Positions 7,901 to 31,076 are shown, numbered from the stretch's first letter. The stretch is 31,076 nt of DNA from Bacteroidales bacterium (GCA_035389045.1 DAOORA010000010.1:62001-93076), one strand, 5' to 3'. Notes: generated from the sequence alone by a model not told the origin. Translations and numbers: made by a program.

Positions 7901-7908
7901 TAAGTTTG
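7901..7908 (+). promoter_or_regulatory. Putative -7 promoter box TAAGTTTG
   Basis: Lies inside the ORF-track 5' extension (7869), which supports the ATG at 7959 as the true start. Confidence 0.6.
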
Positions 7909-7958
7909 AGGTGGGATTCGGATCTATAGTCAAAAAATTATTTCTAACAATAACGCCT

Positions 7959-11342: not shown

Positions 11343-14300
11343 TCAGATCCACCTCATCAGGCTGAAATCCTGACGGTGGGCGAGCAGGTTATTTTTAGGG
11401 AACAATCTGAATGCATAATCAAATACGCCTATCCTGTCCGTGGGCATTTCGATAGTAAAGGTCACCATGTTGTGATGGGTTTCGGTGATTTTTAATTCGT
11501 GTCTGTAAATGATTTTATTTACGACATCATTTACTTTTTGCCCCATGACCATTTCGATACCCACATCGTTTTTGTTCAGTTCGTTTAATTTAAGTTTTAT
11601 CTCCGCATGAAATTTTTCGCCCAGTCCCAGGGGCTTTTTATTTGAATCAATGGTGGTTACGGAGACAACTTCGATGCTTTCCCACGCCCTGAGGATTTTT
11701 TGTTTCCAGGATGCCAGTTTACGGGCATTCAGGTAATTATCATGATTTATCAGCATTATTCGCTTATAAAGCGGGTTGTAGAATTTGCTCCGGTAATCGT
11801 CAAGCATACGTTTTGTCGTGTACTCGGGCGCAATATGTGCAATGGTATTCTTGATTTTCTGCACCCATTTTACCGGAACATTATTCTTGTTGCGGTTATA
11901 AAACATCGGAGCTATTTCGTTTTCAAGGATGTTGTAAATAGTCACTGCGTCAAGAGCATCCTGTGCATCCTGGTTCTGATACGTACGTTCTTCTTTCAGC
12001 GCCCAGCCGGCTTCAGGAAGGTATCCTTCCGCCCACCATCCGTCGAGTACACTGAAATTGATGATCCCGTTCATAACGGCCTTCTCTCCGCTGGTTCCTG
12101 AAGCTTCCAGCGGCCGGGTGGGGGTGTTAAGCCAGATATCGACGCCCTGTACCAGTTTTTTTCCTAATTCAATGTCATAGTTTTCAACGAGCAGGATTTT
12201 GCCGACAAACTCCGGCATAGTGGATATCTCGTATATCTTGGTGATAAGTTTTTGTCCTTCAATATCTTTGGGATGGGCTTTTCCGGCATAGACAAATTGT
12301 ACAGGATATTTTGTATTGTTCAGTATTCTGGAAAGACGTTCCAGGTTCGAAAAGATCATGTTTGCCCTTTTATAGGTTGCGAAGCGGCGGGCGAAGCCAA
12401 TGGTAAGGACCTGGTCGTCGATGGTTTCCGAAACTTTGAAAATCTGCTGAGGGTTATTCTGCCTCAGAGTCATTTCATTCATCAGTCTTTTACGAAGGAA
12501 ATCGATGAGTTCGGCTCTTTGTTGCTGACGAATATCCCAGATCGTTTCATCGGGAACGTCAAAGATTTTTTTCCAGTAACTATGATTGGAAAGGTCATTG
12601 ACATACTTGGGGTCAAAAGTCGCATCATATAATTGTTTCCAACGCTTGGCCACCCATGTCGGGAAATGTACTCCGTTGGTCACATAACCGATATGCAGCT
12701 CTTCGGGAAAATAGCCGGGATACATCTGTGATAAGATGTTGCAGGTTACTTTTCCGTGAATTCTGCTCACACCATTGGTTTCGGCAGATAAAGTCGCTGC
12801 CAGTATACTCATGCTGAACTTTTCGTTTGGATCGTTTTCGTTGGCCTTTCCCAGGTTCATGAACGTCTCCCAGCTTATTTTCAGGCGGTCGGCATAATGA
12901 GGCATATAGGTCCTCAGCAAGTCTTCGCTGAAAAGGTCGTGACCGGCAGGAACTGCCGTATGTGTCGTGAACAGTGAAGACGCTTTCACTACCTCCACAG
13001 CTTCGTTGAAGGTGAGGTTTTCTTCCTGGACATATTTCCGGAGTCTTTCGATGCCCATGAAGGCGGCATGGCCTTCGTTACAATGATAGATGTCGGGTTT
13101 GATGCCAACAATATCCAGCAGTCTTATTCCGCCAATACCGAGCAGCAATTCCTGTTTGAACCGGAGATCGGTACCATCGCCATACAGGCAATGAGTGATG
13201 ATTTTATCTTCAGGCAGATTCTCTTCAATATCCGTATCGAGCAGGTACAATGAAGCCCTGCCGACATCAACACGCCAAACCTTCGCTGTAATAGTTCTTC
13301 CCGGAGCAGCAATATGTACTTTTAACCAGGTGCTCGATTTATCATCATCCGTCTGTTTTTTCCGGACCGGAATCAGCGGTAAATGCGAATATTTCTGAGG
13401 ATGATAGCAGGCAATCTGGTCACCAAGTAAAGAAATATTCTGGTCAAAATATCCGTAACGGTACAACAGGCTCACACCCACGATGTTGGCATTTGAATCG
13501 CTGGCCTGTTTCAGATAATCTCCTGCCAGTATGCCTAATCCGCCCGAGTAGGTTTTCAGCGAATGGTGCAACCCAAATTCCATGCTGAAATAGGCAACCT
13601 GTTCTTTTGGTTTTTTGGGGCCGTAGGCTAAATAATCGGTAAATTGTTTAAAAACGGAATCCAGTTTTTTTCGGAAATCTTTGTCATTCACCAGCTTATG
13701 ATAATCTTCTAAAGAGAGTGATTCCAGGAGTGTAATGGGGTTTTGCCGGCATTCTTCCCATAATTCCGGGTTGATCATCTCAAAAAGCTCAATGGCTTCT
13801 GAATTCCACGTCCACCAGAGGTTTTGTGTGAGTTTGTAGAGCGGCGAGAGTTTTTCGATGATACTGGGACGGACAAGGATCTTGTTCCAATTGGGTATCA
13901 GTTGTTTAGGAGGCTTGATCTCGAATTGTATCGACTGGGATTTGGTTTTATATAATTCATAGCGCGAAAGGGATTTCTGAAGGGCGATGTCGTAAGCATC
14001 ATAATAGTTCTCCACCAGTTTGCTCCATAATGCTTTTCGCGATAATTCATAAGCGCTTGCCCGTGCAGCTTCTTTTTCTTCATCAGAGCTGTTGACAAAT
14101 CCGAGGATTCTTTGCGTGATCATGGCGGTAACATGCTCGTCATTCTCATCGTTACGGTCAATAACGGTGACGAATTTTTCCGGGTCGGGTGATTGTGAGA
14201 GTGCCCAGAGGCCGAATCCGGCAAGCGTGGTAGTGATAGTCGGTATATGAAAGGCAATGCTTTCCAGAGGTGTATACCCCCACGGTTCATAATAAGATGG

Positions 14301-15608
14301 GAAAACAGTCATATCGAAGCCAATGAGAAAATCATAATATCCCAGGTCAACAATACCATCTTTTCCGTCAAGATAACAGGGCACAATGATAATTTTCACT
14401 TTATCGGTGGGTGCATTATTCAGATTGTTACCTTTTATACGCTGGATCATCGGATCATCATGATAATTGTTCAGGATGTGCGTGCAGAATTCTCCGGTTA
14501 CCGCTTCGTTGAAGTCGGGCTGAAGCATACGGCTGGCGAGGTTGGGCAAAGGTCCGCCATGGTCGGCGGGTATCGTTATGAAGGCAACAATATCATGAGT
14601 CAATGATGCGTCCTTATTCAATTGACCCAGGGCATCTATGTACAGATCAATACCCTTGTTATGGAACTCGTACCGTCCGCTGTTAAGCAGGTACAGTGCA
14701 TTATCACTCAAAGGCTGGTTGGTGAGGCCTTCGGTGATCTTTTTTATGGTTTCACGGGCGAGGTGCCTTTTTTCATCGAAATTTGAATTCGTAACCACCA
14801 CAGCATCATCGAATCCGTTGGGAGTGACCAGGTCTACCTCTTTATCCAGAAAATGTGCACATTCATTGGCCGTGATATCACTAACTGTGGTAAAACAATC
14901 GGTGTATTTTGCCGCACTTTTTTCGAGGGAAAATTTCGAAATAACCCCCAATGTTTTTGCCAGTGACTCGCTTTCATAATCCTGGAGTCTGCTGTACAGC
15001 GGCATGCCGTTTCCGGCAATGCATCTTCCAAGTACAGTAGCATGGGTGGTAAATACAGTAGCGATCTGAGGCGTATTGTCCTTAAGCGGAAGCACTCCGG
15101 CTCCGGTGAGCCATTCGTGAAAATGGGCGACAATATGGTCACTGGCTACGACATGATAATCGTAAAAGCTGCGGATGACCACCGATGCGGCGATACCGAA
15201 GAGGGCGGGCTCTATGTAATCCCATTGTCCGTAAATGGAATCAACCTGGTATTTTTCCCACAGTCGGGATAGTATTTCATTTTTTGTGGCAAAATATTGT
15301 GTGAAATCCACCAGGATGACCACGGGTTTACCTGCAATGTTCCAGTTTCCGATCTTAAATTTCAATCCTTTGCTCTCCGCGTCTTCCCTCCAGGATCTGT
15401 AAAGGAATTTGTCTTCAATAAAGTCGGGGTTTTCACGTGTTTCCTTCCAAACATCGGGCCCGATCAGAATGTAATTATTTTTCAGTGTCTCAGCAATGCC
15501 GGCAGCTTTGCTGGCGATTACCGTATAAATCCCGCCTACTTTGTTGCATACTTCCCAGCTTACTTCAAAAAGATAATCGGGCATTAAAAGATTTTTGCTA
15601 TCAGTCAT
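11343..15608 (-). CDS. glgP: Fused glycogen synthase-like glycosyltransferase (GT3) and alpha-glucan/glycogen phosphorylase (GT35)
   Basis: N-part: FEVSWEVCNKVGGIYTV, HFHEW, FTTHAT, GRYEFHNKG, FPSYYEPWGYTP. C-part: YFSMEFG, YSGGLGILAGD, HCNEGH, GFARRFATYKR, EASGTSGEK (PLP lysine). ATG 15608 preferred because the track's TTG at 15635 is part of a TAATTTTG -7 box (15633-15640). Confidence 0.93.
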   Translation of the reverse strand: MTDSKNLLMPDYLFEVSWEVCNKVGGIYTVIASKAAGIAETLKNNYILIGPDVWKETRENPDFIEDKFLYRSWREDAESKGLKFKIGNWNIAGKPVVILVDFTQYFATKNEILSRLWEKYQVDSIYGQWDYIEPALFGIAASVVIRSFYDYHVVASDHIVAHFHEWLTGAGVLPLKDNTPQIATVFTTHATVLGRCIAGNGMPLYSRLQDYESESLAKTLGVISKFSLEKSAAKYTDCFTTVSDITANECAHFLDKEVDLVTPNGFDDAVVVTNSNFDEKRHLARETIKKITEGLTNQPLSDNALYLLNSGRYEFHNKGIDLYIDALGQLNKDASLTHDIVAFITIPADHGGPLPNLASRMLQPDFNEAVTGEFCTHILNNYHDDPMIQRIKGNNLNNAPTDKVKIIIVPCYLDGKDGIVDLGYYDFLIGFDMTVFPSYYEPWGYTPLESIAFHIPTITTTLAGFGLWALSQSPDPEKFVTVIDRNDENDEHVTAMITQRILGFVNSSDEEKEAARASAYELSRKALWSKLVENYYDAYDIALQKSLSRYELYKTKSQSIQFEIKPPKQLIPNWNKILVRPSIIEKLSPLYKLTQNLWWTWNSEAIELFEMINPELWEECRQNPITLLESLSLEDYHKLVNDKDFRKKLDSVFKQFTDYLAYGPKKPKEQVAYFSMEFGLHHSLKTYSGGLGILAGDYLKQASDSNANIVGVSLLYRYGYFDQNISLLGDQIACYHPQKYSHLPLIPVRKKQTDDDKSSTWLKVHIAAPGRTITAKVWRVDVGRASLYLLDTDIEENLPEDKIITHCLYGDGTDLRFKQELLLGIGGIRLLDIVGIKPDIYHCNEGHAAFMGIERLRKYVQEENLTFNEAVEVVKASSLFTTHTAVPAGHDLFSEDLLRTYMPHYADRLKISWETFMNLGKANENDPNEKFSMSILAATLSAETNGVSRIHGKVTCNILSQMYPGYFPEELHIGYVTNGVHFPTWVAKRWKQLYDATFDPKYVNDLSNHSYWKKIFDVPDETIWDIRQQQRAELIDFLRKRLMNEMTLRQNNPQQIFKVSETIDDQVLTIGFARRFATYKRANMIFSNLERLSRILNNTKYPVQFVYAGKAHPKDIEGQKLITKIYEISTMPEFVGKILLVENYDIELGKKLVQGVDIWLNTPTRPLEASGTSGEKAVMNGIINFSVLDGWWAEGYLPEAGWALKEERTYQNQDAQDALDAVTIYNILENEIAPMFYNRNKNNVPVKWVQKIKNTIAHIAPEYTTKRMLDDYRSKFYNPLYKRIMLINHDNYLNARKLASWKQKILRAWESIEVVSVTTIDSNKKPLGLGEKFHAEIKLKLNELNKNDVGIEMVMGQKVNDVVNKIIYRHELKITETHHNMVTFTIEMPTDRIGVFDYAFRLFPKNNLLAHRQDFSLMRWI

Positions 15609-15801
15609 AAATATAAATTTTTTTGAGAGGGGCAAAATTACTGTTTTTTTAGCTTTGTCATGTGAATTAAATTGTTGTTTATATCCCGCTGAAGAATTGA
15701 ATTATTTTGTATACCGGTCAGGATGTTTCTTTCTGTTTTTTTCATAAAAACCTCAAAACATTCAATAAAAATCATTTAATTTGTACAATAAAAAATTTGC
15801 G

Positions 15802-18851: not shown

Positions 18852-20882
18852 ATGAAAAAATCATTTGTGTTCTTCTGTTCCTTTTTGCTGGCCATATCGT
18901 TTACTTATGCACAGAACCGGCTTACGCCGGAATTGTTATGGAAATTCGGGCGGGTAAGTGATATGCAGCTTTCACCCGACAAGAAAACGGTTTTGTACGG
19001 GATAACTTATTATAATCTAAGCGAAAACAAAGGCAATCGCGACCTTTATGTCATTCCTTTGGCAGGTGGAACCCCGGTCAATCTTACCAATTCTGAAGGC
19101 AGCGAATGGAACGGTTTATGGCGTCCCGACGGTAAAAAGATCGGATATATTTCAGCAAAAAGCGGTGAACCCCAACTCTGGGAGATGAACCCCGATGGCA
19201 GCAACAAAAAACAACTGAGCAGTTTTACGGGCGGTATTACCGGTTTTGCCTATTCACCGGCCATGACACACATACTAGTTACCCGTGATGTTAAACTTGA
19301 TATGACTGCCGTAGAGCTTTACCCCGATCTGCCCCAGGCCGATGCCCGTATCATCGACGATTTGTTTTACCGTCACTGGAACGACTGGCACGACTATGCC
19401 TATAGTCATATCTTCGTATCGGCATATTCCGATGGCAATGTCAGCGGCGAACTCGATATCCTTCGAGGTGAAAAATATGATACCCCGCTCACACCCGACG
19501 GAGGTATGGAACAGATAAACTGGAGCCCCGACGGATTGAAAATTGCTTATACCTGCCGCAAACTGCATGGCAGGGACGAATGTGTGAGCACTAACTCCGA
19601 TATTTATATATATGATATTAAGTCGGGCATTACCGAAAACATAAGTAACGGCATGATGGGTTATGATCTTGATCCGGTGTTTTCACCCGATGGCAGTAAA
19701 ATAGCCTGGTGCAGCATGAAAACGCCTGGCTATGAGTCTGATAAAAAACGTCTTATGGTTTACGATTTTGGCACTAAAAAGTATTCCGATTTGAGTGAAA
19801 ACTTTGATGAAAGCGCCGCCAGTTTACGGTGGAGCGCCGATGCCAAAAGCATTTATTTTCTTAGTTACACCAAAGGTACCTGCCAGGTTTTTAAAGCCGA
19901 TGTGGCAAGCGGAAAAATCGTTCAGCTGACGACGGGCATGCATGATTTTACTGAGTTGTATGCTGACGGAAAGTATATGGCGGGTGTGAAAATGTCCATG
20001 TCGGCGCCCTCCGAAATATATCGAATTGATGAAGTTAAGGGGCAATTCAATCCGGTACAGATCACGTTTACTAACCTGGAGTTACTCTCATCCATTCAGA
20101 CGGGCAGGGTGGAGGAACGCTGGATTACCACCTCCGACAATAAAAAAATGCTGGTGTGGGTTATTTATCCTCCCGACTTCGACAAAAACAAGAAGTATCC
20201 TGCGCTGTTATATTGCCAGGGAGGGCCCCAGAGTACGGTCAGCCAGTTTTTCTCTTACCGCTGGAATTTTCAGATCATGGCAGCCCACGACTATATTGTG
20301 GTAGCCCCCAACAGACGAGGCTTACCGGGCTTCGGAACAGACTGGAACGATCAGATAGCCCTGGATTATGGCGGACAAAACATGCTCGACTACCTGGCTG
20401 CTATTGATACTTTAGCAAAGGAGCCCTATGTCAATAAAGACAAGCTGGGCGCCGTGGGCGCCAGTTACGGCGGTTTCTCGGTCTACTGGCTGGCCGGTAA
20501 TCATAACAAGCGGTTCAAGGCATTTATCGCCCATTGCGGCATGTTCAATTTCGAGAGCTGGTATGGTGCCACTGAAGAAATGTGGTTCCCCAACCACGAC
20601 TTTGGCGGTGCGTACTGGAATGAACCACAACCCGAAAGCTATAATTTTTCTCCGCACAAATTTGTGGGTAACTGGGATACCCCAATACTTGTGATACATG
20701 GAGGTTATGATTTCCGTATTCCTTATACCGAAGGCATGCAGGCGTTTAACGCGGCGCAGTTACAAGACATTCCCAGCCGTTTTTTATTCTTCCCCAATGA
20801 AACCCACTTTGTCGTCAAACCACAAAACAGTGTGCTGTGGCAGCGCGAGTTTTTCGGATGGCTGGATAAATACCTGAAGTAG
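18852..20882 (+). CDS. S9 family (prolyl oligopeptidase/dipeptidyl-peptidase 5-like) serine peptidase
   Basis: Signal peptide TYA-Q; WSPDG/FSPDG propeller repeats; GASYGG nucleophile, GGYDFRIP Asp and NETH His of the catalytic triad. Confidence 0.93.
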   Translation: MKKSFVFFCSFLLAISFTYAQNRLTPELLWKFGRVSDMQLSPDKKTVLYGITYYNLSENKGNRDLYVIPLAGGTPVNLTNSEGSEWNGLWRPDGKKIGYISAKSGEPQLWEMNPDGSNKKQLSSFTGGITGFAYSPAMTHILVTRDVKLDMTAVELYPDLPQADARIIDDLFYRHWNDWHDYAYSHIFVSAYSDGNVSGELDILRGEKYDTPLTPDGGMEQINWSPDGLKIAYTCRKLHGRDECVSTNSDIYIYDIKSGITENISNGMMGYDLDPVFSPDGSKIAWCSMKTPGYESDKKRLMVYDFGTKKYSDLSENFDESAASLRWSADAKSIYFLSYTKGTCQVFKADVASGKIVQLTTGMHDFTELYADGKYMAGVKMSMSAPSEIYRIDEVKGQFNPVQITFTNLELLSSIQTGRVEERWITTSDNKKMLVWVIYPPDFDKNKKYPALLYCQGGPQSTVSQFFSYRWNFQIMAAHDYIVVAPNRRGLPGFGTDWNDQIALDYGGQNMLDYLAAIDTLAKEPYVNKDKLGAVGASYGGFSVYWLAGNHNKRFKAFIAHCGMFNFESWYGATEEMWFPNHDFGGAYWNEPQPESYNFSPHKFVGNWDTPILVIHGGYDFRIPYTEGMQAFNAAQLQDIPSRFLFFPNETHFVVKPQNSVLWQREFFGWLDKYLK

Positions 20883-20956
20883 AAAAGCCAGGCATATTCC
20901 TAACCGTATTGTGCATTTTTGATTTTTGCTTTCGGGCAGAAAATCCGCAATGATTG

Positions 20957-20988
20957 TTTGTTTTTGTTGCTTTAATATCGTATATTTG
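20957..20988 (+). promoter_or_regulatory. Bacteroidota -33/-7 promoter (TTTG-N20-TATATTTG) upstream of adaptor 1
   Basis: TTTG 20957-20960 and TATATTTG 20981-20988; conserved with identical spacing in the duplicated block (25688-25719). Confidence 0.7.
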
Positions 20989-21036
20989 TATTAAATAATT
21001 CTTAAAAATAATTTATTTAAGTAATTATTTAATAAC

Positions 21037-21548
21037 GTGAAGCACAATGTTATCCTGTTTTTTGTTTTTATCAGTTTAACGGGTACTATTTTAAATGCCC
21101 GGTTGCTGGAAGCTTATGTGATCTCTTCCGGAGGTTACTATACTTCGGCTGCCGGTTCTTTTTGTGTTACGCTGGCCGAAACGACCATGGTGCAGACCTT
21201 GTCATCCATGGGTAATTTTCTGACACAGGGATTTCAACAACCCGACGAATGGTATTCATCCATCCAGGAGGAGCCTGTACAGGGAAACTTTGTTGTTTAT
21301 CCCGATCCTAACTATGGTAATATTATTGTAACTGTGCAATCCAAAGAAAATGGCGAGGCACAACTAAGTATTTATGATGTGCTGGGGCAAAAGGAATTTT
21401 CCATACAAAAGACCATTGTCACCGCAGCTAACCTTGAATATATAGATATTCGTGGTTATTCCATGGGTATTTATTTTCTCTTGTGCTAATAGGTTGATGA
21501 AAACGGCAAAATGAATTTAAAGTCCTGAAAATCAACACAACTAATTAA
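21037..21548 (+). pseudogene. Degenerate small T9SS-CTD protein (adaptor 1)
   Basis: Paralog of 23424 and 25767, but with GTG start, +1 Gln changed to Arg, YPNP changed to YPDP and a premature stop at 21487-21489; the lost C-terminal sequence persists, frameshifted, to ~21548. Confidence 0.75.
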
Positions 21549-21563
21549 ATAAAAAAGCAAACT

Positions 21564-22943
21564 ATGAGAACAACAATTGCCAAAATCATTTTTTCAGTAT
21601 CTTTTTTATTGATTACGGGCTTTTCATTGGCTCAGGTGCCGCATGCATTTAATTATCAGGCTGTTGCCCGCGATGTGTCTGGAAATGTGCTGCCTGACAA
21701 GATACTGGGCATCAGGGTTTCACTGCACCTGGGAACAGCGATGGGAGCCGTAGTTTATTCGGAAACATTTACTGCGATCACTAATGCCTATGGCCTGTTT
21801 ACCTTGGATATAGGGCTTGGAACCACAATTTCTGGGCAATTTGATACGATAGCCTGGGGTAAAAATCACTATTACATGCAGGTGGAAATGGATCCTACAG
21901 GCGGTGCAACATACATTGATATGGGAACCAGCCAGTTGCTGAGTGTTCCCTATGCCATGTATGCTGAAAACTCCGCATGGAAAAGAAATGGGTCAAATAT
22001 CTTTTATGATGCTGGAAATGTTGGGGTTGGATTAGCTGACCCCAGCCAAAAGCTGCATATAAAAGGAACTTTCAGGGTTGATGATCCAAATCCAATGATC
22101 CAATTAATAGACACTACTGCTTTTAAGGGTTATGTTCAGTCCTATCATAACGATATGATTTTTGCCAATGCCAATGATACCGGCAGTATTGAATTTTGGA
22201 CCAACTATGCTGAAAAAATGAAAATTAAAGCCAATGGTAACGTGGGCATAGGAACCACCAACCCTGCCAATAAATTTGAAGTTATCAATTCGGAAAGCGC
22301 TAAATTCAGGGTGGGAACAATTACTTCGCTCGGAAAAGGCTTTGGCCAGGAATATGACTCAATCACTCCAGGTTATTTTATTGCACATGGAGGCGAATAC
22401 TGGCATTTTTGTTATGCGGACACTCCCGATTCTGCCTATACAAGAAAAGTGACCCTTGACGGCAGGGGCAATATGTTCCGTCCATCCATCAATAATGTTA
22501 TCAGTCTTGGAAATCTTTCATATAAATGGGCTGCTGTTTATGCCGTAAACGGAACTATTCAAACTTCAGATTTACGATATAAGGACAATATATCTGATAT
22601 TCAGTACGGGCTTGATGAAGTGTTGAAACTTCGCCCGGTTTCCTACAGGTGGAAAGACGATAACCTTAACATTGGAACCGGAAAAAATCTCGGTTTTATC
22701 GCCCAGGAACTGGAAACCATTGTTCCTGAGGTAGTTGTACATAAGCAGACAGAAATTGATAATGAAACCAACCATCCTGCCGGCGAATACCCTGACACTT
22801 ATGGCGTGAAATACAGTGAACTTATTCCGGTGCTGGTAAAAGCCATACAGGAGCAACAAACCCAGTTTGTAAAAGCCATACAGGAACAGCAAACCCAGAT
22901 AGAACAATTAAAACAGGAAATAAAAATATTGAAAGGGCAATGA
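21564..22943 (+). CDS. Secreted fibre-like protein 1: conserved N-module + tail-fibre-like GxVGIG segments + peptidase S74 intramolecular chaperone + coiled coil
   Basis: Signal peptide SLA-Q; FNYQAVARD...LLSVPYAMYAE; GNVGIGTTNP; SDLRYK, LRPVSY, GFIAQE, YSELIPVLVKAIQEQQ (S74). Confidence 0.88.
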   Translation: MRTTIAKIIFSVSFLLITGFSLAQVPHAFNYQAVARDVSGNVLPDKILGIRVSLHLGTAMGAVVYSETFTAITNAYGLFTLDIGLGTTISGQFDTIAWGKNHYYMQVEMDPTGGATYIDMGTSQLLSVPYAMYAENSAWKRNGSNIFYDAGNVGVGLADPSQKLHIKGTFRVDDPNPMIQLIDTTAFKGYVQSYHNDMIFANANDTGSIEFWTNYAEKMKIKANGNVGIGTTNPANKFEVINSESAKFRVGTITSLGKGFGQEYDSITPGYFIAHGGEYWHFCYADTPDSAYTRKVTLDGRGNMFRPSINNVISLGNLSYKWAAVYAVNGTIQTSDLRYKDNISDIQYGLDEVLKLRPVSYRWKDDNLNIGTGKNLGFIAQELETIVPEVVVHKQTEIDNETNHPAGEYPDTYGVKYSELIPVLVKAIQEQQTQFVKAIQEQQTQIEQLKQEIKILKGQ

Positions 22944-23092
22944 CAATGCCCGTAAGCCTTGCAATTTTCAATAATATAACCCGTTGATGATGACTGTCCG
23001 GCAAAGGGTTGTCTTATTAATAATACCCTGGAATTCACTCCTGGTTTTTTTAATGAAATTTTAATAATAAAATATTTTTTTATTTATTTAAT

Positions 23093-23338
23093 CACTGTTG
23101 TCCGGTAAAAATATTTTAAATATGCTGAATAGCTTTATTTTCAGAACATTTACAACATATCGCCACCTACGGGGCTTTATTTTTCATTGTAATGTTTTTT
23201 CTACCAATATGCCGCCTCTAACGAGGCTAAAAAAGTTCCAAAGGTCTATAATATTATCATAATGAATAATTTGCCAACTTATAAAAGCGCCGTAGGTTCG
23301 AAATATTACATAGTTAATAAATTAACCGGACAATAATG
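23093..23338. mobile_element. MITE-like non-autonomous element (246 bp) with internal REP-like repeats
   Basis: Imperfect terminal inverted repeats CACTGTTGTCCGGTAAA (23093-23109) and TTAACCGGACAATAATG (23322-23338), 14/17 match; flanked by TTATTTAAT/TTATTTAAC (possible 9-bp target duplication); no ORF. Confidence 0.6.
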
Positions 23339-23377
23339 TTATTTAACAAATTTATTGTTTTTATAAACATAAATGAT

Positions 23378-23385
23378 TAAATTTG
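23378..23385 (+). promoter_or_regulatory. Putative -7 box TAAATTTG for adaptor 2/fibre 2
   Basis: TAnnTTTG match 38 bp before ATG 23424. Confidence 0.5.
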
Positions 23386-23423
23386 CTTTATTAATCGTAC
23401 AATTTTTAAATTAATCAAACCTT

Positions 23424-23939
23424 ATGAAACGAAAATTTATGCTACTGTTCATTTCCGGAGTTATGATAGTGTTTCTTTCTCATGCACAGTCGCTGACACC
23501 TTTTGTGATCTCTTCATCCGGTGGTTATTATTCTTCGGCTGCCGGTTCTCTATCGGCTACAGTGGCCGAAATGACCATGGTGCAGACTTTATCTTCCATG
23601 GGTAATTTTCTGACACAGGGATTTCAGCAACCCGGCGAATGGTATGTATCCATCCCGGAGGAGCCGGTGCAGGGCAACCTGTCCGTTTATCCCAATCCCA
23701 GTTATGGTAAATTCAATGTAACGGTGCAATCCAAAGAAAAAGGGGAGGCAGAGCTCAGCATTTATGATGTACTGGGGCAAAAAACCTGTTCCAGCCGTAT
23801 GCACATTGTACCCGGCGCTAACACTGAGTATGTGGATATCCGTGGTTATTCCATGGGCATATATTTACTCGAATATCTTTACACCGGAGAAAACGGTAAA
23901 AAGGAATCTAAAGTTCTGAAAATCAATGTAATCAATTAA
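23424..23939 (+). CDS. Small T9SS type A CTD protein (adaptor 2)
   Basis: Signal peptide SHA-Q; ~55-aa segment VISSSGG...LTQGFQQP; CTD YPNP...IYDVLGQ...GIYLL...KVLKINVIN. Confidence 0.9.
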   Translation: MKRKFMLLFISGVMIVFLSHAQSLTPFVISSSGGYYSSAAGSLSATVAEMTMVQTLSSMGNFLTQGFQQPGEWYVSIPEEPVQGNLSVYPNPSYGKFNVTVQSKEKGEAELSIYDVLGQKTCSSRMHIVPGANTEYVDIRGYSMGIYLLEYLYTGENGKKESKVLKINVIN

Positions 23940-23957
23940 TCATATAAATAAAATGCC

Positions 23958-25184
23958 ATGAAAACAACCGTTACCAAAATCATTTGTTCATTGATCTTTT
24001 TATTGATCACGGGCTATACTTTTGCCCAGATTCCACATGCCTTTAATTACCAGGCTGTTGCCCGCGATGTTTCGGGAAATGTATTACCTAACCAGCTTTT
24101 GAGTATCAGGTTATCTCTGCACCTGGGAACGTCGACAGGTACAATAGTATATTCGGAAACTTTTGCCCCTATCACTAATGATTTTGGCCTGTTTACCATA
24201 GGTGTAGGAATAGGAATCCCTGTTTCCGGGCAATTTGATACGATTGCGTGGGGTAAGAATCACTATTACATGCAGGTGGAAATGGATCCTACGGGCGGCG
24301 CGACCTATGTTGATATGGGAACCAGCCAGTTGCTGAGTGTTCCCTATGCCATGTATGCTGAAAACTCGGTCTGGAAAAGAAATGGGTCAAAAATATTTTA
24401 TGATAATGGCTATGTAGGAATTGGAATCAATGATCCCCTGACCAGGCTCCATGTATTGAGCACCATTCGTATTGACGGTTCATCGCCGTTAATTCAATTC
24501 AGAGATGGAGCTACACCTAAGGGATTTATTCAATCTTATGGCAGCAATTCCGATCTGATCATTTCAAATACTGTAAGCTCCGGTAGCGTTCAGTTATGGT
24601 CAGACAATAGCGAAAGAATGAGAATTAACGCCATGGGAAATGTCGGTGTAAATTGCACGGCGCCGGCATACAAATTCGAAGTTGACGGCCCTTCAGGCAC
24701 CTTCAGTGTAAGTGGTATCCGTATTCAAAACACTACCGCCTCTACAGGATGGAGTTTTTATCCTTCCAATACCGGCGATTTAGTCATTGGAAAAACTTCC
24801 AATCTTGGTTCATTCGACGGGACAACGGGCGCTTACACAGCCGCATCCGACGGACGGTTAAAAACAAATATAAGGCCTTTGGAAACGGTATTGTCTTCGG
24901 TGCTGGATATGCAGCTCAAACGTTATGAGTTTAAAGAAAACAATCCTTTACACAAAGAATCCATAGGGATTATTGCACAGGATCTTCAGAAAGTATTTCC
25001 TGAGTTTGTCTCTGTGAACACCGCAAATGACGGAAACCCACTGGTTGAAAATCAGATGGGTGTCGACTACAGCGGTTTGAGCATTATTGCCCTCAAGGCT
25101 ATACAGGAGCAACAAAAAGAGATCGAGTCACTGAAAGCAGAAATAAAAGCTTTGAAAGAAGCGATAGAGCAACTGAAGAAATAA
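23958..25184 (+). CDS. Secreted fibre-like protein 2 with peptidase S74 chaperone domain
   Basis: Same N-module as fibre 1; GYVGIG and GNVGVN segments; SDGRLK, GIIAQDL, YSGLSIIALKAIQEQQ; C-terminal coiled coil. Confidence 0.88.
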   Translation: MKTTVTKIICSLIFLLITGYTFAQIPHAFNYQAVARDVSGNVLPNQLLSIRLSLHLGTSTGTIVYSETFAPITNDFGLFTIGVGIGIPVSGQFDTIAWGKNHYYMQVEMDPTGGATYVDMGTSQLLSVPYAMYAENSVWKRNGSKIFYDNGYVGIGINDPLTRLHVLSTIRIDGSSPLIQFRDGATPKGFIQSYGSNSDLIISNTVSSGSVQLWSDNSERMRINAMGNVGVNCTAPAYKFEVDGPSGTFSVSGIRIQNTTASTGWSFYPSNTGDLVIGKTSNLGSFDGTTGAYTAASDGRLKTNIRPLETVLSSVLDMQLKRYEFKENNPLHKESIGIIAQDLQKVFPEFVSVNTANDGNPLVENQMGVDYSGLSIIALKAIQEQQKEIESLKAEIKALKEAIEQLKK

Positions 25185-25529
25185 AAGAAGTGGTTCGTAA
25201 TGAATCCGCAAATATTCTGTGCCTCGATTCGGGTTAGGTTATGAATTGATTTGAATAGTTTTATGTATTGGACGATCCCGAAAGTTTTCCTCAGGTTATT
25301 CGGTTAGATTGGATAACAGGCGATTATTGTTCCACTGCCTGTGTAATCTGCGTTCCTTCCGGAGTGGCGTAAAGAGGAGATTTTTTTACACTAAGTTAAT
25401 TAGTTGATTTATATTTGGTTATTAATGCCTGTTGCCCGTTCCATTGGTTATAAATTTAACATGGCTGAACTGATTAATATTACGGTATGCTTTACCTGAC
25501 CATAAGGTTCATATATATTTTTTATAAGA

Positions 25530-25616
25530 CAATGAAACGCACTTCGTTGTCAAACCGCAAAACAGTGTGCTGTGGCAGTGATAGTTCTTCAGCCGGCTGG
25601 TAAGTACCTGAAATAG
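25530..25616 (+). pseudogene. Duplicated, decayed 3' fragment of the S9 peptidase gene
   Basis: AATGAAACGCACTTCGTTGTCAAACCGCAAAACAGTGTGCTGTGGCAG encodes NETHFVVKPQNSVLWQ, identical to the peptidase C-terminal region (from 20796); followed by TGA, then aligns to the original stop region. Confidence 0.9.
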
Positions 25617-25687
25617 AAGAGCCGGCATATTCCTTCCTTTCCAGCACTTTTTTAATGTTCTCTTTCAGGCAGAAACCGGTAAAGTTT

Positions 25688-25719
25688 TTTGTTTTTGCTG
25701 CTTTTATGTCGTACATTTG
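25688..25719 (+). promoter_or_regulatory. Bacteroidota -33/-7 promoter (TTTG-N20-TACATTTG) upstream of adaptor 3
   Basis: Duplicate of 20957-20988 with the consensus retained. Confidence 0.7.
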
Positions 25720-25766
25720 TATTAAATAATTCTTAAAACTTATTTATTAAATAAAATTTTAAAAAA

Positions 25767-26282
25767 ATGAAATGGAATGTTATCCTGCTTTTTGTTTTTG
25801 TCAGTTTAACGGGCACTTTATTGAATGCCCAGTCGCTGACACCTTTTGTGATCTCTTCGTCCGGCGGTTATTATGCTTCGGCTGCCGGTTCCCTTTCGGC
25901 TACAGTGGCCGAAATGACCATGGTGCAGACTTTATCTTCCATGGGTAATTTCCTGACACAGGGATTTCAGCAACCAGGCGAATGGTATGCATCTATACCG
26001 GAGGAGCCGGTGCAGGGCAACCTGTCCGTTTATCCCAATCCCAGCTATGGTAATTTCTATGTAACAGTGCAATCCAAAGAAAAAGGGGAGGCACAACTTA
26101 GTATTTATGATGTACTGGGGCAAAAAATCTATTCCAGCCATATGCGCATTGTCAGCGGCGCTAACACTGAGTATGTGGATATCCGCGGTTATTCCATGGG
26201 CATATATTTACTCGAATATCTTTACACCGGAGAAAACGGTAAAAAGGAATCTAAAGTCGTGAAAATCAATGTGATCAATTAA
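25767..26282 (+). CDS. Small T9SS type A CTD protein (adaptor 3)
   Basis: Signal peptide LNA-Q; mature region differs from adaptor 2 at about 11 of 150 residues (hand count); intact CTD. Confidence 0.9.
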   Translation: MKWNVILLFVFVSLTGTLLNAQSLTPFVISSSGGYYASAAGSLSATVAEMTMVQTLSSMGNFLTQGFQQPGEWYASIPEEPVQGNLSVYPNPSYGNFYVTVQSKEKGEAQLSIYDVLGQKIYSSHMRIVSGANTEYVDIRGYSMGIYLLEYLYTGENGKKESKVVKINVIN

Positions 26283-26300
26283 CCATAAAAATAAAATACC

Positions 26301-27026
26301 ATGAAAACAACAGTTACCAAAATCATTTTTTCACTGATCTTTTTATTGGTCACGGGCTATTCTTTTGCCCAGGCGCCGCAGGCGCTCAACTACCAGGCCG
26401 TAGCCCGCGATGTTTCGGGAAACGTGCTGCCCAGCCAGATACTGGGTATAAAGGTGTCACTGCACCTGGGATCAGCCACAGGAGCCGTAGTTTATTCAGA
26501 AACATTTACTCCGACCACTAATCCCTTTGGTTTGTTTACGATAGACATAGGAAATGGAATTACTAATTCCGGGCAATTTGATACGATTGCCTGGGGTAGG
26601 AATCACTATTACATGCAGGTGGAAATGGATCCTACGGGCGGCGCAACATACGTTGATATGGGAACCAGCCAGTTGCTGAGTGTTCCCTATTCCTTGTTTG
26701 CAGAAAAGTCACGAACTGTTGCCGCCAGCTATACAAATTCCCCTCTTCCTGTCGCTTATGGCTTTGTGGAGTCAAGCGGTACACTTGCTTCCGGTACTTC
26801 AAATATCTCTTCTGTAACATGGAATGCCACAAATAGCCGATACGAGATAACAATTACCGGGGAATCTTATTATTTTAATGATTATGTTACGATTGTCACG
26901 ATCTGCGGTGTGGGTCAGATCACTGTTGAAACGAGCAGTGTCGGCGGAAAATTGCTGGTTTATTTGTACAACTCAGCAGGGACCAAAGTCCAAAGCATGT
27001 TTCAATTTATAACATATAAACCATAA
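26301..27026 (+). CDS. Secreted protein 3 of the array: conserved N-module + ~95-aa beta-rich C-terminal domain of unassigned family
   Basis: N-module to LLSVPYSLFAE, then PVAYGFVESSG...SVTWNATNSRYEITI...FQFITYKP. Confidence 0.85.
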   Translation: MKTTVTKIIFSLIFLLVTGYSFAQAPQALNYQAVARDVSGNVLPSQILGIKVSLHLGSATGAVVYSETFTPTTNPFGLFTIDIGNGITNSGQFDTIAWGRNHYYMQVEMDPTGGATYVDMGTSQLLSVPYSLFAEKSRTVAASYTNSPLPVAYGFVESSGTLASGTSNISSVTWNATNSRYEITITGESYYFNDYVTIVTICGVGQITVETSSVGGKLLVYLYNSAGTKVQSMFQFITYKP

Positions 27027-27039
27027 AATTTTTTAAACC

Positions 27040-27864
27040 ATGAAATCACCATTTATAAAGATCATCTTTTCATTAACCTTTTTATTGATCACGTGCTATA
27101 CTTTCGCCCAGGCGCCGCAGGCATTTAATTACCAGGCTGTTGCCCGCGATGTCTCGGGAAACGTGCTGCCTGACCAGATACTGGGGATTAAGGTTTCACT
27201 GCACATGGGAACAGCAACAGGTGCGGTAGTTTATTCGGAAACTTTTACACCGACGTCAAATTCCTTTGGACTGTTTACCATAGGCATAGGTCTTGGAACT
27301 GCTATTTCCGGGCAGTTTGATACGATTTCCTGGGGCAAAAATCACTATTATATGCAGGTGGAAATGGATCCTGCGGGCGGCGCGACCTATGTTGATATGG
27401 GAACCAGTCAGTTATTGAGTGTGCCTTATGCAATGTATGCAGCTCATACAGAGGGAATTGGTTTTTCCGCATATAGGAGTGCAACGACTCAATTAATTGC
27501 TGCAGGTTCATACACCGAAATTGTTTTTAATTCAGAGAATTATGATGATGGTAATGGCTATAACCCAACTAATGGTTATTATACCGCACCTTCAGCCGGA
27601 GTGTATCATTTTGATGCATCTGCCCGGCTAACCGGAACGGCAACGGAAGGGCAGACAACTGTTATTGTTCTTGTTGTCAATGGAAATCAAAAAAGGATGA
27701 AAAGGATGTTATCCGAAACAGATGCTTTTAGTATAGATGTTTCTGCTGATCTTAAGTTAAATGCCGGAGACATAGTGAATGTTGAAATATATAGCCAAAC
27801 AGAAACGTCTGCTATGTATATCAATAATATTTGTACATTTTTCTCAGGGCATAAGGTTTATTGA
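27040..27864 (+). CDS. Secreted protein 4 of the array: conserved N-module + C1q/TNF-like head
   Basis: GFSAY...IVFNSENYDDGNGYNPTNGYYTAPSAGVYHF...LKLNAGDIVNV...FFSGHKV matches the globular C1q pattern. Confidence 0.88.
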   Translation: MKSPFIKIIFSLTFLLITCYTFAQAPQAFNYQAVARDVSGNVLPDQILGIKVSLHMGTATGAVVYSETFTPTSNSFGLFTIGIGLGTAISGQFDTISWGKNHYYMQVEMDPAGGATYVDMGTSQLLSVPYAMYAAHTEGIGFSAYRSATTQLIAAGSYTEIVFNSENYDDGNGYNPTNGYYTAPSAGVYHFDASARLTGTATEGQTTVIVLVVNGNQKRMKRMLSETDAFSIDVSADLKLNAGDIVNVEIYSQTETSAMYINNICTFFSGHKVY

Positions 27865-27976
27865 TGTTGAGGAAAAATATCTTTTCTTTTTCAGGTATGC
27901 GTATTATAGCAGAAAGCACAGCGGCGAAAACGGAAAATAGGAATCTAAAGTGTTGAAAATTAATGGAATAATTAAT
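27858..27976 (+). pseudogene. Eroded 3' remnant of a fourth adaptor gene
   Basis: GGCGAAAACGGAAAATAGGAATCTAAAGTGTTGAAAATTAATGGAATAATTAATCATA aligns with the adaptor 2 end GGAGAAAACGGTAAAAAGGAATCTAAAGTTCTGAAAATCAATGTAATCAATTAATCATA; contains a stop and deletions. Confidence 0.75.
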
Positions 27977-27992
27977 CATAAAAAAATATAAC

Positions 27993-29423
27993 ATGAAAAC
28001 AACGGTTACCAAAATCATTTTCTCATTGATCTTTTTAGTTGTCATGGGCTATTCTTTTGCCCAGGCGCCCCAGGCATTCAATTACCAGGCCGTTGCCCGC
28101 GATATTTCGGGAAATGTATTGCCCAACCAGCTTTTGGGTATCAGGGTTTCACTGCATATGGGAACAGCCACGGGAACCGTAGTTTATTCGGAAACCTTTA
28201 CTCCGACCACTAATCCCTATGGTTTATTTACCCTAAGCATAGGTATAGGAACCTCTGTCTCCGGGCAATTTGATACGATTGCATGGGGTAAGAATCAATA
28301 TTACATGCAGGTGGAAATGGATCCTGCGGGCGGAGTGACGTATACTGATATGGGTACCAGTCAGTTGCTTTCTGTTCCTTATGCTATGTATGCTGAGAGA
28401 ACCAAAGCATTGCCTCCGGGTACTTCTGGACAAACTCTCGCTCATGATGCCTCAGGATGGGTAGCCAGTGATTTTCTTGTTAATACCGGAGTCCGCATAG
28501 GTATTGGAACCACCACACCGGGATTCTTATGTGAGATGAAATCCTCTCAGTCCTATTTACATATTAACTCCACAGGAACTTTCGGAGGTATTTTACTGAA
28601 CAGGCCTGATACGAATTCATATATGAGACTGATGTATCGCACTGATGATAGTAATAAATGGTATGTAGGCCTGCTGGGGGCCAAAGATGGTTATTCTGTT
28701 TCGAGAGCAAACAGCGATGATGGTACATTTCATATAAATCATAATAATGGTTATGTAGGAATCGGAACAATTGCGCCAACCAATATCTTTGAAGTAGTAA
28801 CCGGAACTTCAGGAAGCAAATTCCGTGTAGGCTCAGTCACATATGGCTCTGGTTTTGGCCAGGATTTTAACAGCAGTAATGCCTCATATTTTCTGGCTAA
28901 TGGCGGCTCTTACTGGCATTTTTGCTATGCGGCAACTCCTGCAGATGCATATACAAGAATAGTGTCCATTGATGGCGGAGGAAATGTTTTCCGTCCTTCT
29001 GCAAACAATACAGTAAGCTTAGGAAACTCAGGTTATAAATGGACCGCTGTATGGGCAGTGAACGGAACCATACAGACTTCTGACCTGCGTTATAAAACCG
29101 ATATCGCTGACATACCTTACGGGCTTAAAGAAGTTTTGAAACTTCGCCCTGTTTCTTATAGCTGGAAAAATGAAAAGCTGAATACCGGTACAGGCAAAAA
29201 TCTTGGCTTTATTGCCCAGGAAATGGAAACATTGGTGCCTGATGTTGTGGTTCATACTCAGATAGAAATTGACAAAGAAACCGATCAGCCCGGAAGTGAG
29301 TATCCGGATGCCTACGGCGTGAAATACAGCGAGCTTATTCCTGTGCTGGTAAAAGCTATTCAGGAGCAACAAGCTCAGATTGAACTGCTGAAGCAGGAAA
29401 TTAAAACCCTGAAAGAAAAATAG
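27993..29423 (+). CDS. Secreted fibre-like protein 5 with peptidase S74 chaperone domain
   Basis: Same N-module; GTSGQTL...W segment; RIGIGTTTP and GYVGIGTIAP; SDLRYK, GFIAQE, YSELIPVLVKAIQEQQ. Confidence 0.88.
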   Translation: MKTTVTKIIFSLIFLVVMGYSFAQAPQAFNYQAVARDISGNVLPNQLLGIRVSLHMGTATGTVVYSETFTPTTNPYGLFTLSIGIGTSVSGQFDTIAWGKNQYYMQVEMDPAGGVTYTDMGTSQLLSVPYAMYAERTKALPPGTSGQTLAHDASGWVASDFLVNTGVRIGIGTTTPGFLCEMKSSQSYLHINSTGTFGGILLNRPDTNSYMRLMYRTDDSNKWYVGLLGAKDGYSVSRANSDDGTFHINHNNGYVGIGTIAPTNIFEVVTGTSGSKFRVGSVTYGSGFGQDFNSSNASYFLANGGSYWHFCYAATPADAYTRIVSIDGGGNVFRPSANNTVSLGNSGYKWTAVWAVNGTIQTSDLRYKTDIADIPYGLKEVLKLRPVSYSWKNEKLNTGTGKNLGFIAQEMETLVPDVVVHTQIEIDKETDQPGSEYPDAYGVKYSELIPVLVKAIQEQQAQIELLKQEIKTLKEK

Positions 29424-30775: not shown

Positions 30776-30911
30776 TTTGATTGATTTTTTTTAGTTTTTT
30801 TGTCTTCTATGAACATTTTTGTATTTGCTATGCGTTCATTTTGGTTATGTTTTTAAGGACTTCAAATTCAAATTAAGTGTTTCACTTTTATAATTCTAAC
30901 TCCCAACTCCC

Positions 30912-30929
30912 TCCCGATAGTTATCGGGA
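30912..30929. repeat. Short palindrome TCCCGATAGTTATCGGGA
   Basis: 8-bp stem TCCCGATA/TATCGGGA with 2-nt loop; related copies at 30718-30750. Confidence 0.8.
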
Positions 30930-30930
30930 C

Positions 30931-31076
30931 CTCCCGACTCCCGACTCCCGACTCCTGACTCCCGACTCCCGACTCCCGACTCCCGACTCCCGACTCCCGA
31001 CTCCCGACTCCCAGCTCCCAGCTCCCGACTCCCGACTCCCGACTCCCGACTCCCGACTCCCGACTCCCGACTCCCG
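30931..31076. repeat. 7-bp tandem repeat (CTCCCGA), about 21 units, running to the window end
   Basis: Directly visible; variants CTCCTGA and CTCCCAG. Confidence 0.95.

Follow-up and report, generated by a model that had tools for sequence, protein, structure and literature searches.

In the genome of a Bacteroidales bacterium, small proteins carrying a T9SS sorting domain (CTD) are encoded ahead of fibre proteins that lack one, and we found the same adjacency across many families of Bacteroidota. The genome also encodes SprA, PorU and PorV. This arrangement may well be a conserved two-gene module for surface display in T9SS-bearing Bacteroidota.

Adaptor and fibre genes of the window

We analysed a stretch of 31,076 nt from this genome (GCA_035389045.1, DAOORA010000010.1:62001-93076), referred to below as the window. 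ORF reading identified three genes for the small protein, here called the adaptor (A1–A3), and five CTD-less fibre genes (F1–F5), all on the plus strand. Adaptor A1 (21037..21489, 150 aa, GTG start) precedes fibre F1 (21564..22943, 459 aa), and the intact adaptor A2 (23424..23939, 171 aa) precedes F2 (23958..25184, 408 aa). The intact adaptor A3 (25767..26282, 171 aa) comes first in a run of three fibre genes: F3 (26301..27026, 241 aa), F4 (27040..27864, 274 aa) and F5 (27993..29423, 476 aa). From these coordinates, the gap is 74 nt for A1-F1, 13 nt for F3-F4, 128 nt for F4-F5, and 18 nt in both intact pairs, A2-F2 and A3-F3. An earlier note on this DNA had described a repeated pair, adaptor and then fibre, with this 18-nt spacing, and the ORFs agree with its description.

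Two points of that note need correction: A1 is probably decaying, and the window also holds a relic of a fourth adaptor. The match of A1 to the CTD profile PF18962 spans only profile positions 1-60 of 75, and the last ~22 codons of its CTD (21484-21563) are still recognisable, with three in-frame stops; A1 is probably a decaying copy, as judged by its sequence. The relic, the 3' end of the fourth adaptor, is a 68-nt segment (27918..27985, plus strand) directly before F5; it belongs to repeat family D4, shows 76% identity to the end of A3 and has no open frame. The upstream flank of A3 (25535..25766, plus strand) is duplicated as well. It duplicates the S9 peptidase gene's 3' end together with the intergenic region preceding A1 (repeat families D9, D8 and D7; 79-83% identity to 20800-21128).

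Candidate regulatory boxes with the consensus TAnnTTTG are located at 20981, 23378 and 25712, 39-49 nt ahead of each adaptor start. The motif was not enriched across the window (35 found vs 31 expected), and scans of the window for sigma-70 promoters and terminators gave results at or under shuffle level. At an identity of at least 99%, parts of A3, F2, F3, F4 and F5 are matched by contigs from two metatranscriptome runs; such cover does not demonstrate transcription, because DNA carry-over into the RNA libraries may account for it, and the uncovered parts are uninformative.

Composition of the adaptors

Each adaptor consists of a signal peptide, a ~50-aa segment ending in LTQGFQQP (the TQ segment) and a type A T9SS CTD, which in A1 is truncated at its end. 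In A2, the TQ segment (aa 22-69) is joined by a short linker to the CTD (aa 88-166). The N-terminus is hydrophobic and followed by A-Q, which we read as a predicted Sec signal peptide. The Pfam profile PF18962 (Por_Secre_tail) scored 34.5, 43.6 and 45.9 bits in A1, A2 and A3, against a cut-off of 27, and all three exceeded the TIGR04183 cut-off of 23 (A2, 39.4 bits; A3, 43.2 bits). The composition agrees with the earlier note, which saw in the adaptor no more than a signal peptide, ~55 aa and a type A CTD.

The TQ family comprises 10,278 cluster representatives (E<=0.001) and is without a descriptive name. The TQ segment was the most conserved part of the adaptor, with a mean pairwise column identity of 0.45 vs 0.30 for the CTD among 35 adaptors, a figure biased by the fact that these adaptors were picked by their TQ matches. 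The TQ profile matched PDB sequences at no better than E 0.028, and the Atlas clusters retrieved with the TQ part were all labelled 'hypothetical protein' (0.88, under the trust level). When compared profile to profile, the TQ segment and the N-module of the fibres showed no similarity. Where family members are longer, spacer domains separate an N-terminal TQ segment from a C-terminal CTD in every case, so that the TQ segment lies farthest from the anchor.

This composition bears on whether the adaptor, periplasmic or secreted, could instead help to assemble or chaperone the N-domain, acting as neither anchor nor carrier. Such a helper might, for example, block premature sticking of the N-domain, and the fibre would leave by vesicles, lysis or another exporter. 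The tight adjacency of the genes would suit any cognate helper, some fibre genes have no adaptor, and phage fibres, according to abstracts, often have a dedicated chaperone gene alongside. However, a periplasmic helper needs no complete T9SS sorting domain, yet almost all TQ family members keep one, and the long forms hold the TQ segment at the tip of their spacer domains, like a presented docking site. We consider a chaperone role unlikely, and regard the adaptor as plausibly a docking partner of the fibres that is delivered by the T9SS.

The fibres and their N-module

All five fibres have a common N-module of ~113 aa. Their alignment showed little or no variation as far as residue ~134 (LLSVPYA) and diverged beyond it; F5 and F1 are 67% identical overall. 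The partners had been noted to have the same signal peptide and a ~110-aa N-module ending in LLSVPYA, followed by different tips, and the alignment confirmed this. F1 consists of a signal peptide, the N-module, a stalk and a Peptidase_S74 intramolecular chaperone; F5 likewise has an N-module, a stalk and Peptidase_S74, and F2 has an N-module and Peptidase_S74. The PF13884 matches (F1, E 4.6e-16; F2, E 2e-15; F5, E 4.2e-15) scored 56-59 bits against a cut-off of 22, and each contains an SDxxxK motif (SDLRYK in F1 and F5, SDGRLK in F2), named as the motif of the S74 chaperone in the paper on Bdellovibrio fibres (PMC10769870). F4 ends in a C1q head, where PF00386 matched over profile positions 2-125 of 127 with 41 bits (E 2.7e-10; cut-off 23.7). 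F3 ends in a tip knob of ~100 aa that matched no Pfam family. In an Atlas search this knob resembled unnamed phage-fibre or collagen-like tips (TM 0.78-0.89), which we treat as a lead only.

Eleven further fibres of the genome were scanned and have YadA_head, Lcl_C, fn3 and S74 tips; YadA_head repeats occur in five of them. We rejected YadA-type trimeric autotransporters as a model, as no membrane-anchor family was found in any of the 16 fibres scanned. CTD profiles matched none of the five window fibres at E<=0.1, and a CTD was absent from all 11 further fibres tested, in line with the earlier claim that the fibres lack a CTD. The type B CTD (CHU_C, PF13585) was likewise found neither on the five window fibres (E<=0.1) nor on the 11 others (E<=0.001), and no route across the outer membrane was visible in the domain content of either set.

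An AlphaFold2 monomer model of the F3 N-module, built with an alignment, predicted a 7-strand beta-sandwich (pLDDT 90, pTM 0.82); a single-sequence fold of F3 (pLDDT 35) was discarded. Foldseek found nothing in the PDB at E<=0.001 with this model, and a wide VIA-align search returned only generic Ig-like sandwiches (best Z 6.9). T9SS CTDs appeared among the matches (8qb1, Z 6.6; 6za2, Z 6.1), level with numerous unrelated entries.

The NCBI model NF053851 (Bdello_MAT_N) matched 37 of 37 mature N-modules at E<=0.1 (best E 3.4e-11). The scores were under the model's cut-off of 60 bits, at 17.8-27.9 for the window fibres (F1, 26) and 32.1 for the best in the genome. On these profile matches, the N-module is a distant homologue of the MAT N-domain, outside the Bdellovibrio subfamily. 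The earlier note did not mention that the fibres are relatives of the published mosaic adhesive trimers (MAT), the chimeric fibres of Bdellovibrio bacteriovorus (Caulton et al., 2024, PMC10769870). As described in that paper, MAT fibres have a signal peptide followed immediately by a constant beta-rich N-domain, long stalks and swappable tips of S74 and non-S74 classes, and they occur as many paralogues per genome. The window fibres likewise combine a constant N-domain with mosaic tips, of the S74 class in F1, F2 and F5 and of other kinds in F4 (C1q) and F3 (unnamed). Three differences stand out: the N-modules here score under the MAT cut-off; the bacterium is no predator but a T9SS-bearing member of the Bacteroidales from sludge; and a gene for a CTD mini-protein precedes the fibre, whereas no surface partner is known for the MAT N-domain.

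Linkage of TQ and N-module genes

Seven of the eight TQ genes in the window's genome have an N-module gene directly downstream on the same strand, and the eighth lies at a contig end. By our own arithmetic, 19 N-module genes over 4.46 Mb give a chance expectation of ~0.0015 per TQ gene, so the pairing is far above chance. The genome has three N-module classes, each beside its own TQ class.

The adjacency test proposed by the earlier note was run with profiles in two samples, and the linkage held in both. In 41 related genomes, all from the same order, 74 of the 97 TQ matches had a same-strand N-module within 2.5 kb downstream; 68 of these 74 pairs were at most 700 nt apart, and the modal distance of 342 nt fits a CTD, a gap and a signal peptide. 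Several of the 23 unpaired matches were at contig ends. Both gene families were present in 34 of these genomes, neither in five, and only one in two incomplete genomes. Among 301 Bacteroidota genomes, 39 of the 41 TQ-positive genomes were also N-module-positive, and an N-module lay directly downstream of 43 of the 62 TQ matches (window's genome left out). Twelve further TQ matches had a same-strand N-module 1-4.7 kb upstream, and a divergent N-module was found downstream of 2 of the 19 unpaired matches after all. The pairs occur in at least 10 families by our tally, with the adaptor stop mostly 5-25 nt ahead of the fibre start. In genomes positive for the N-module and negative for TQ, 16 of 20 checked loci had immediately upstream an ORF of 168-202 aa whose product has a signal peptide and a CTD as well as a short beta segment rich in Gly and Ser. 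A tag-carrying mini-protein ahead of tag-less fibres suggests, at the level of gene content and order, that it exports or anchors them.

The pairing has exceptions. In the 41 relatives, 58 of the 150 N-module matches listed had no TQ match upstream, and no upstream mini-protein was found at the remaining 4 of the 20 checked loci. One N-module class in the window's genome, made up of three genes on contig C60, is not accompanied by any visible adaptor. Five of 11 checked TQ genes were true orphans; one long TQ protein is followed by a protein that lacks an N-module. No fusion of TQ segment and N-module was found among the 97 and 62 TQ matches or eight long or tandem proteins. Pairwise distances between N-modules tracked those of the adaptor CTD (r 0.78) as well as those of the TQ segment (r 0.76), and hence the test gave no TQ-specific signal above the CTD; the correlation can be attributed to a shared duplication history.

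Such a history would fit the spread of a cassette in which adaptor 3' and fibre 5' ends serve as a recombination unit for swapping tips, with no joint function behind the adjacency. It would account for the correlated distances, and the window contains what it predicts, namely a segmental duplication including flanks (D7-D9), decaying copies and a relic. We consider it very unlikely, because pairs whose TQ identity has dropped to 25-40% are still found in different classes of the phylum with both genes open, and a functionless linkage would not have kept both frames open so long.

The two proteins could also serve a shared process and never bind each other, the adaptor being a small surface peptide in its own right, secreted by the T9SS and expressed together with the adhesins, for instance a matrix component, a signal or a PorA-like sensor relay. 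The orphan TQ genes and the lack of a TQ-specific co-evolution signal are compatible with this, and PorA of P. gingivalis is described in an abstract as a small CTD protein that acts in signalling. Against it stand the stereotyped order and the spacing, mostly 5-25 nt, in at least 10 families, the pairing of distinct TQ classes with distinct N-module classes within one genome, and fibres that have no visible route across the outer membrane. We therefore rate independent action as rather improbable, and continue with docking as the preferred explanation.

T9SS context

The window's genome has SprA (SprA_N, E 1.4e-168), two PorU paralogues (1341 and 1148 bits, cut-off 420) and PorV (496 bits, cut-off 250). 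In the 301-genome sample, SprA was present in all 85 N-module-positive genomes. The proposed restriction to T9SS-positive genomes was thus borne out, both gene families occurring only in SprA-positive genomes of the sample; as the SprA-negative genomes are nearly all from one family, this pattern counts as a single evolutionary event. Some type A CTD cargo leaves the cell, as in Flavobacterium. In P. gingivalis, PorU cleaves type A cargo, which becomes anchored via anionic LPS, according to the abstract of PMC9143113. In the literature we found no case in which the T9SS translocates an oligomer or a passenger without a CTD, and nothing on the T9SS in combination with piggyback, tail-fibre or co-secretion pairs of this sort.

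Discussion

A fibre of this class would consist of a Sec signal peptide, a constant Ig-like N-domain, a stalk and an exchangeable, trimer-associated tip. Because its C-terminus is a receptor-binding tip or a self-cutting S74 chaperone, no C-terminal T9SS signal is possible there. We propose that the upstream adaptor would provide this signal in trans. Its type A CTD would carry it through the T9SS, PorU and PorV would remove the CTD and may link the remainder to the cell surface, and the ~60-aa TQ domain would be left as a docking site for the fibre N-domain. The earlier note had likewise inferred that the N-module docks on the adaptor's short peptide and that the fibre would travel by the T9SS, a reading that our results support in part. 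Docking on the surface would amount to capture, and docking in the periplasm to co-export, or hitchhiking. For the latter we tentatively suggest that the TQ domain binds the Ig-like N-domain of a folded, presumably trimeric fibre in the periplasm, that the CTD takes the complex through SprA, and that PorU tethers it. Co-export of a CTD-less fibre by the T9SS is a possibility that we advance with reserve, and it would be new.

Known systems offer partial parallels. Like type A CTD cargo, A2 and A3 have complete type A CTDs that score over the cut-offs, in a genome with SprA, PorU and PorV. Ordinary type A cargo, by contrast, has its functional domain in cis, whereas the passenger here has no more than ~60 aa, and the large adhesin is encoded apart from it and lacks a CTD. 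Tat hitchhiker export and the export of folded oligomers by the T2SS both let a signal-less subunit ride on a signal-bearing partner. The proposed mechanism resembles them in that the signal-less subunit would be exported by binding its partner before the folded complex is translocated; it differs in the machine and the membrane, and we found no T9SS case in the literature. The type B pairs SprB-SprF and PG1035-PorP, as covered in the abstract of PMC9143113, also have adjacent genes, with one partner holding the other at the surface, as may be the case here. Their partner, however, is an outer-membrane barrel and not a small soluble CTD protein. One type B CTD/PorP-like pair adjoins a long-adaptor locus in the window's genome. 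PorA of P. gingivalis is likewise a small T9SS-CTD protein with a non-enzymatic role; it differs from the adaptor in its FimH-like lectin domain and its part in PorXY-SigP signalling, and neither a TQ segment nor a fibre partner has been reported for PorA.

If the pairing is not physical, it would still be a strongly conserved operon. If it is physical, the adaptor would be the missing surface partner of MAT-like adhesin fibres, which form a widespread class, and a very large unannotated family of mini T9SS proteins would gain a function. The T9SS, for which only CTD-bearing cargo has been described so far, would then also export 'in trans'. The pairing would also provide a display handle for trimeric proteins on Bacteroidota, consisting of an N-module passenger and a TQ-CTD adaptor. 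Should hitchhiking be true, the adaptor would be a trans-acting, detachable secretion signal, which would explain how MAT-type fibres arrive at the surface and hint at the type of partner to expect in Bdellovibrio.

Three small adaptor genes precede five CTD-less fibre genes

The array occupies positions 21037-29423 and comprises three small and five larger genes, all on the plus strand, in the order A1-F1, A2-F2, A3-F3-F4-F5. The small genes, A1 (21037-21489), A2 (23424-23939) and A3 (25767-26282), encode adaptors. A protein alignment indicated that these could be aligned end to end, each consisting of a hydrophobic N-terminus running to A-Q, a Gly/Ser-rich segment of ~50 aa ending in LTQGFQQP (the TQ segment), a short acidic linker and a type A C-terminal T9SS sorting domain (CTD), which exceeded the curated cut-offs of Pfam PF18962 and TIGR04183. 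The larger genes encode fibres: F1 (21564-22943), F2 (23958-25184), F3 (26301-27026), F4 (27040-27864) and F5 (27993-29423). The aligned fibres were identical or nearly so over their first ~134 residues, until LLSVPYA, and unrelated beyond; we call this constant N-terminal part the N-module. A Peptidase_S74 intramolecular chaperone formed the C-terminal end of F1, F2 and F5, with SDxxxK visible in the translations, and a C1q domain that of F4. The tip of F3 was a ~100-aa knob without a Pfam family; its model resembled unnamed phage-fibre or collagen-like tips in the Atlas, which is a lead only. No CTD match was found in F1-F5.

These alignments and domain matches bore out the earlier note's account of the adaptor and fibre genes, but that description had overlooked the decay of A1 and a relic of a fourth adaptor. 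A1 carries three stops within the last ~22 codons of its CTD, which are still recognisable, and a 68-nt remnant of the fourth adaptor's end lies directly upstream of F5. The array was built up by segmental duplication: the DNA leading up to A1, comprising the 3' end of the upstream S9 peptidase gene and an intergenic region, is repeated before A3 with 79-83% identity. The peptidase 3' end at 20800-20865 was found copied at 25535-25600 (83% identity). In a contig from DNA run X1, position 25600 ran back into 20900 across 34 letters of other sequence; the junction reflects either variation of the unit's copy number in the population or an assembly effect caused by the repeat.

A TAnnTTTG box, a consensus from work on Bacteroides promoters, was located 39-49 nt before each adaptor start, the motif showing no enrichment in the window. 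A terminator scan revealed no convincing terminator between adaptor and fibre genes. An activated-sludge DNA run contained nearly the entire window, and digester and wastewater runs contained parts of it. Pieces of A3, F2, F3, F4 and F5 were present at at least 99% identity in contigs of two metatranscriptome libraries; because DNA carry-over is possible, this cover does not demonstrate transcription.

The setting is an ordinary chromosome and no prophage, with RecA, a TPR protein, a glycogen synthase/phosphorylase fusion, an S9 peptidase and further T9SS cargo as neighbours. The fusion is a 1430-aa ORF (11343-15635, minus strand) joining glycogen synthase, DUF3417 and carbohydrate phosphorylase domains. 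Two calcineurin-like phosphoesterases on the plus strand (6472-7728 and 7869-10283) each carry a type A CTD of their own; in the second there are further matches of CarboxypepD_reg-, SdrD_B- and dockerin-like type, spacer families shared with the long TQ adaptors. In the left part of the window, a gene on the minus strand (684-5546) encodes a 1620-aa polymorphic-toxin-like protein with RHS repeats (RHS_repeat, E 7e-118) and a DUF6531 domain. Positions 30868-31076 at the window end are open on both strands, with short tandem peptide repeats (GVGSRES and PTPDSRL on opposite strands), suggesting a tandem DNA repeat of ~21 nt.

The TQ segment defines a large family of mini-proteins

Beyond the CTD, the adaptors had no Pfam or NCBIfam match, and the TQ segment had no sequence match in the PDB. 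An Atlas search with it brought up only "hypothetical protein" clusters, and close homologues from Bacteroidales metagenome bins were labelled at best "T9SS type A sorting domain-containing protein" or "hypothetical protein". A TQ profile searched against 1.84 billion cluster representatives gave 10,278 matches at E<=0.001, of which 2,436 reached E<=1e-10. Most of these proteins were 155-175 aa long and had the segment near residues 20-76. A minority were longer, being either TQ-TQ-CTD tandems or forms of 500-900 aa with the TQ segment N-terminal, then spacer domains, and the CTD C-terminal; the one long protein scanned against Pfam had CarboxypepD_reg-like and dockerin-like spacer matches. 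Mean pairwise column identity was 0.45 in the TQ segment vs 0.30 in the CTD among 35 adaptors, a set selected through TQ matches. One protein of 4682 aa (P0063) partially matched the first half of the profile (positions 8-34) 39 times; the SSGG…SLS.T.GE hairpin may also be a repeat unit in giant proteins.

The fibres belong to the MAT type

The N-module was modelled, with 37 homologues, as a compact seven-strand beta-sandwich (pLDDT 90, pTM 0.82) with a less confident LLSVPYA tail, and fold searches returned only generic Ig-like sandwiches. After removal of signal peptides, 37 of 37 mature N-modules matched NCBIfam NF053851 (best E 3.4e-11), with all scores in the window's genome below the model's 60-bit cut-off. 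On sequence grounds, the N-module is distantly related to the N-terminal domain found in the mosaic adhesive trimer (MAT) fibres of Bdellovibrio. [quoted passage not shown] The fibres here share this architecture and are a Bacteroidota branch of MAT-type fibres, a known kind.

The window's genome has 19 N-module genes. Eleven further fibres scanned there carried YadA_head repeats, S74, Lcl_C or fn3, apart from one without a Pfam family; neither a CTD nor an autotransporter anchor occurred in any of the 11. Two N-module fibres of this genome flank a CTD-less fibre of a second kind (C3:116501-117655; locus L001, 7274-7999), which has a different N-terminus (…GVSINTSGAPADSSAMLDVSS…) and an Lcl_C-like motif at its end. 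An unusual arrangement was seen at C598:2708-4981 of genome G037, where a single 917-aa open frame contains five tandem N-module matches.

Adaptor and fibre genes are linked across Bacteroidota

The linkage of adaptor and fibre genes proposed in the earlier note was strongly supported by adjacency in 41 same-order and 301 sampled Bacteroidota genomes. The window's own genome has eight TQ genes, four of them coding for ~520 aa and four small (three in the window, one on contig C13); seven directly precede one to three N-module genes, and the eighth is at a contig end. Among the same-order genomes, 35 had the TQ segment and 35 the N-module (both in 34, neither in five); the two mismatching genomes were 81% and 70% complete. 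A same-strand N-module lay <=2.5 kb downstream of 74 of their 97 TQ matches, 68 of these pairs falling within 700 nt, with 342 nt from TQ segment end to N-module start as the commonest gap. Several of the 23 unpaired matches were at contig ends. When 40 pairs were fetched and searched with the profile, the adaptor ORF was recovered in 33, each of them 159-193 aa long and of the same build.

In the 301-genome sample, 41 genomes from 30 of 144 genera had the TQ segment; 85 genomes from 53 genera had the N-module, among them 39 of the 41 TQ-positive ones. Outside the own genome, an N-module lay directly downstream of 43 of 62 TQ matches, and for 12 more one was situated on the same strand at 1-4.7 kb upstream; a divergent N-module was found downstream of two of the remaining exceptions. 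True orphans made up five of the 11 TQ genes inspected. Conversely, no TQ match was found upstream of 58 of 150 N-module matches among those listed for relatives, and in the own genome the three fibres of one class, on contig C60, had no adaptor in view. Many N-module-only genomes are no exceptions: in 16 of 20 loci from TQ-negative genomes, the fibre gene is immediately preceded by an ORF of 168-202 aa that encodes a signal peptide, a short beta segment rich in Gly/Ser, and a CTD; the other four had no upstream mini-protein.

In the own genome, three N-module classes adjoin three matching TQ classes. Distances correlated with those of the N-module alike for the TQ segment (r = 0.76) and the CTD (r = 0.78), and therefore indicate a shared history, not a specific interface.

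Both components occur in T9SS-positive genomes

SprA_N was present in 237 of the 301 sampled genomes, including all 85 N-module-positive and all 41 TQ-positive ones, and neither component was found in the 64 SprA-negative genomes. The expected restriction to T9SS-positive genomes held within the sample, but this is essentially one event and no statistical proof, because a single family accounts for 63 of the 64 SprA-negative genomes. The window's genome encodes SprA, two PorU paralogues and PorV, all above cut-offs. The PorU paralogues stand in tandem, followed by PorV (C13:24939-33094), ~15 kb upstream of the adaptor-fibre pair on that contig. A classical type B pair also occurs beside the adaptor-fibre kind: about 1.1 kb before a long TQ adaptor in this genome (C3:106001-108139; L001, 2-2139), a gene for a CHU_C (type B CTD) protein stands in front of one for PorP/SprF.

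A possible role of the adaptor in fibre display

Formally, the adaptor is ordinary T9SS cargo. Tat hitchhiking is among the nearest analogies to the adaptor-fibre pair. Others are type B CTD cargo retained by an adjoining PorP-like barrel (PMC9143113) and PorA, a small CTD protein that signals instead of carrying. Full-text searches, and the sections on the T9SS in a review of the export of folded proteins, yielded no description of the TQ mini-protein family, no near-obligate pairing of such a protein with a CTD-less fibre and no instance of a T9SS signal being provided in trans.

The fibres have Sec signal peptides and no visible route across the outer membrane: no type A or B CTD, autotransporter anchor or conserved lipobox was found. 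Each C-terminus is already occupied, either by the receptor-binding tip or by a self-removing S74 domain that is lost after trimerisation, so a C-terminal secretion tag would probably be lost or obstruct. The adaptor, encoded in front of the fibre gene, is little beyond a CTD tag and a conserved 50-aa domain, the latter a putative dock projecting from the cell surface for the fibre N-domain. Such a docking site would be consistent with the TQ segment being the most conserved part of the adaptor, with its position far from the CTD in the long forms and with the matched classes. Docking could take place either in the periplasm, with co-export, or outside the cell, by capture. We give physical docking with T9SS-dependent display about an even chance, and consider true co-export rather unlikely. 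As judged from these sequence comparisons, a mechanism in which the adaptor would supply the fibre with its place on the cell surface is plausible.
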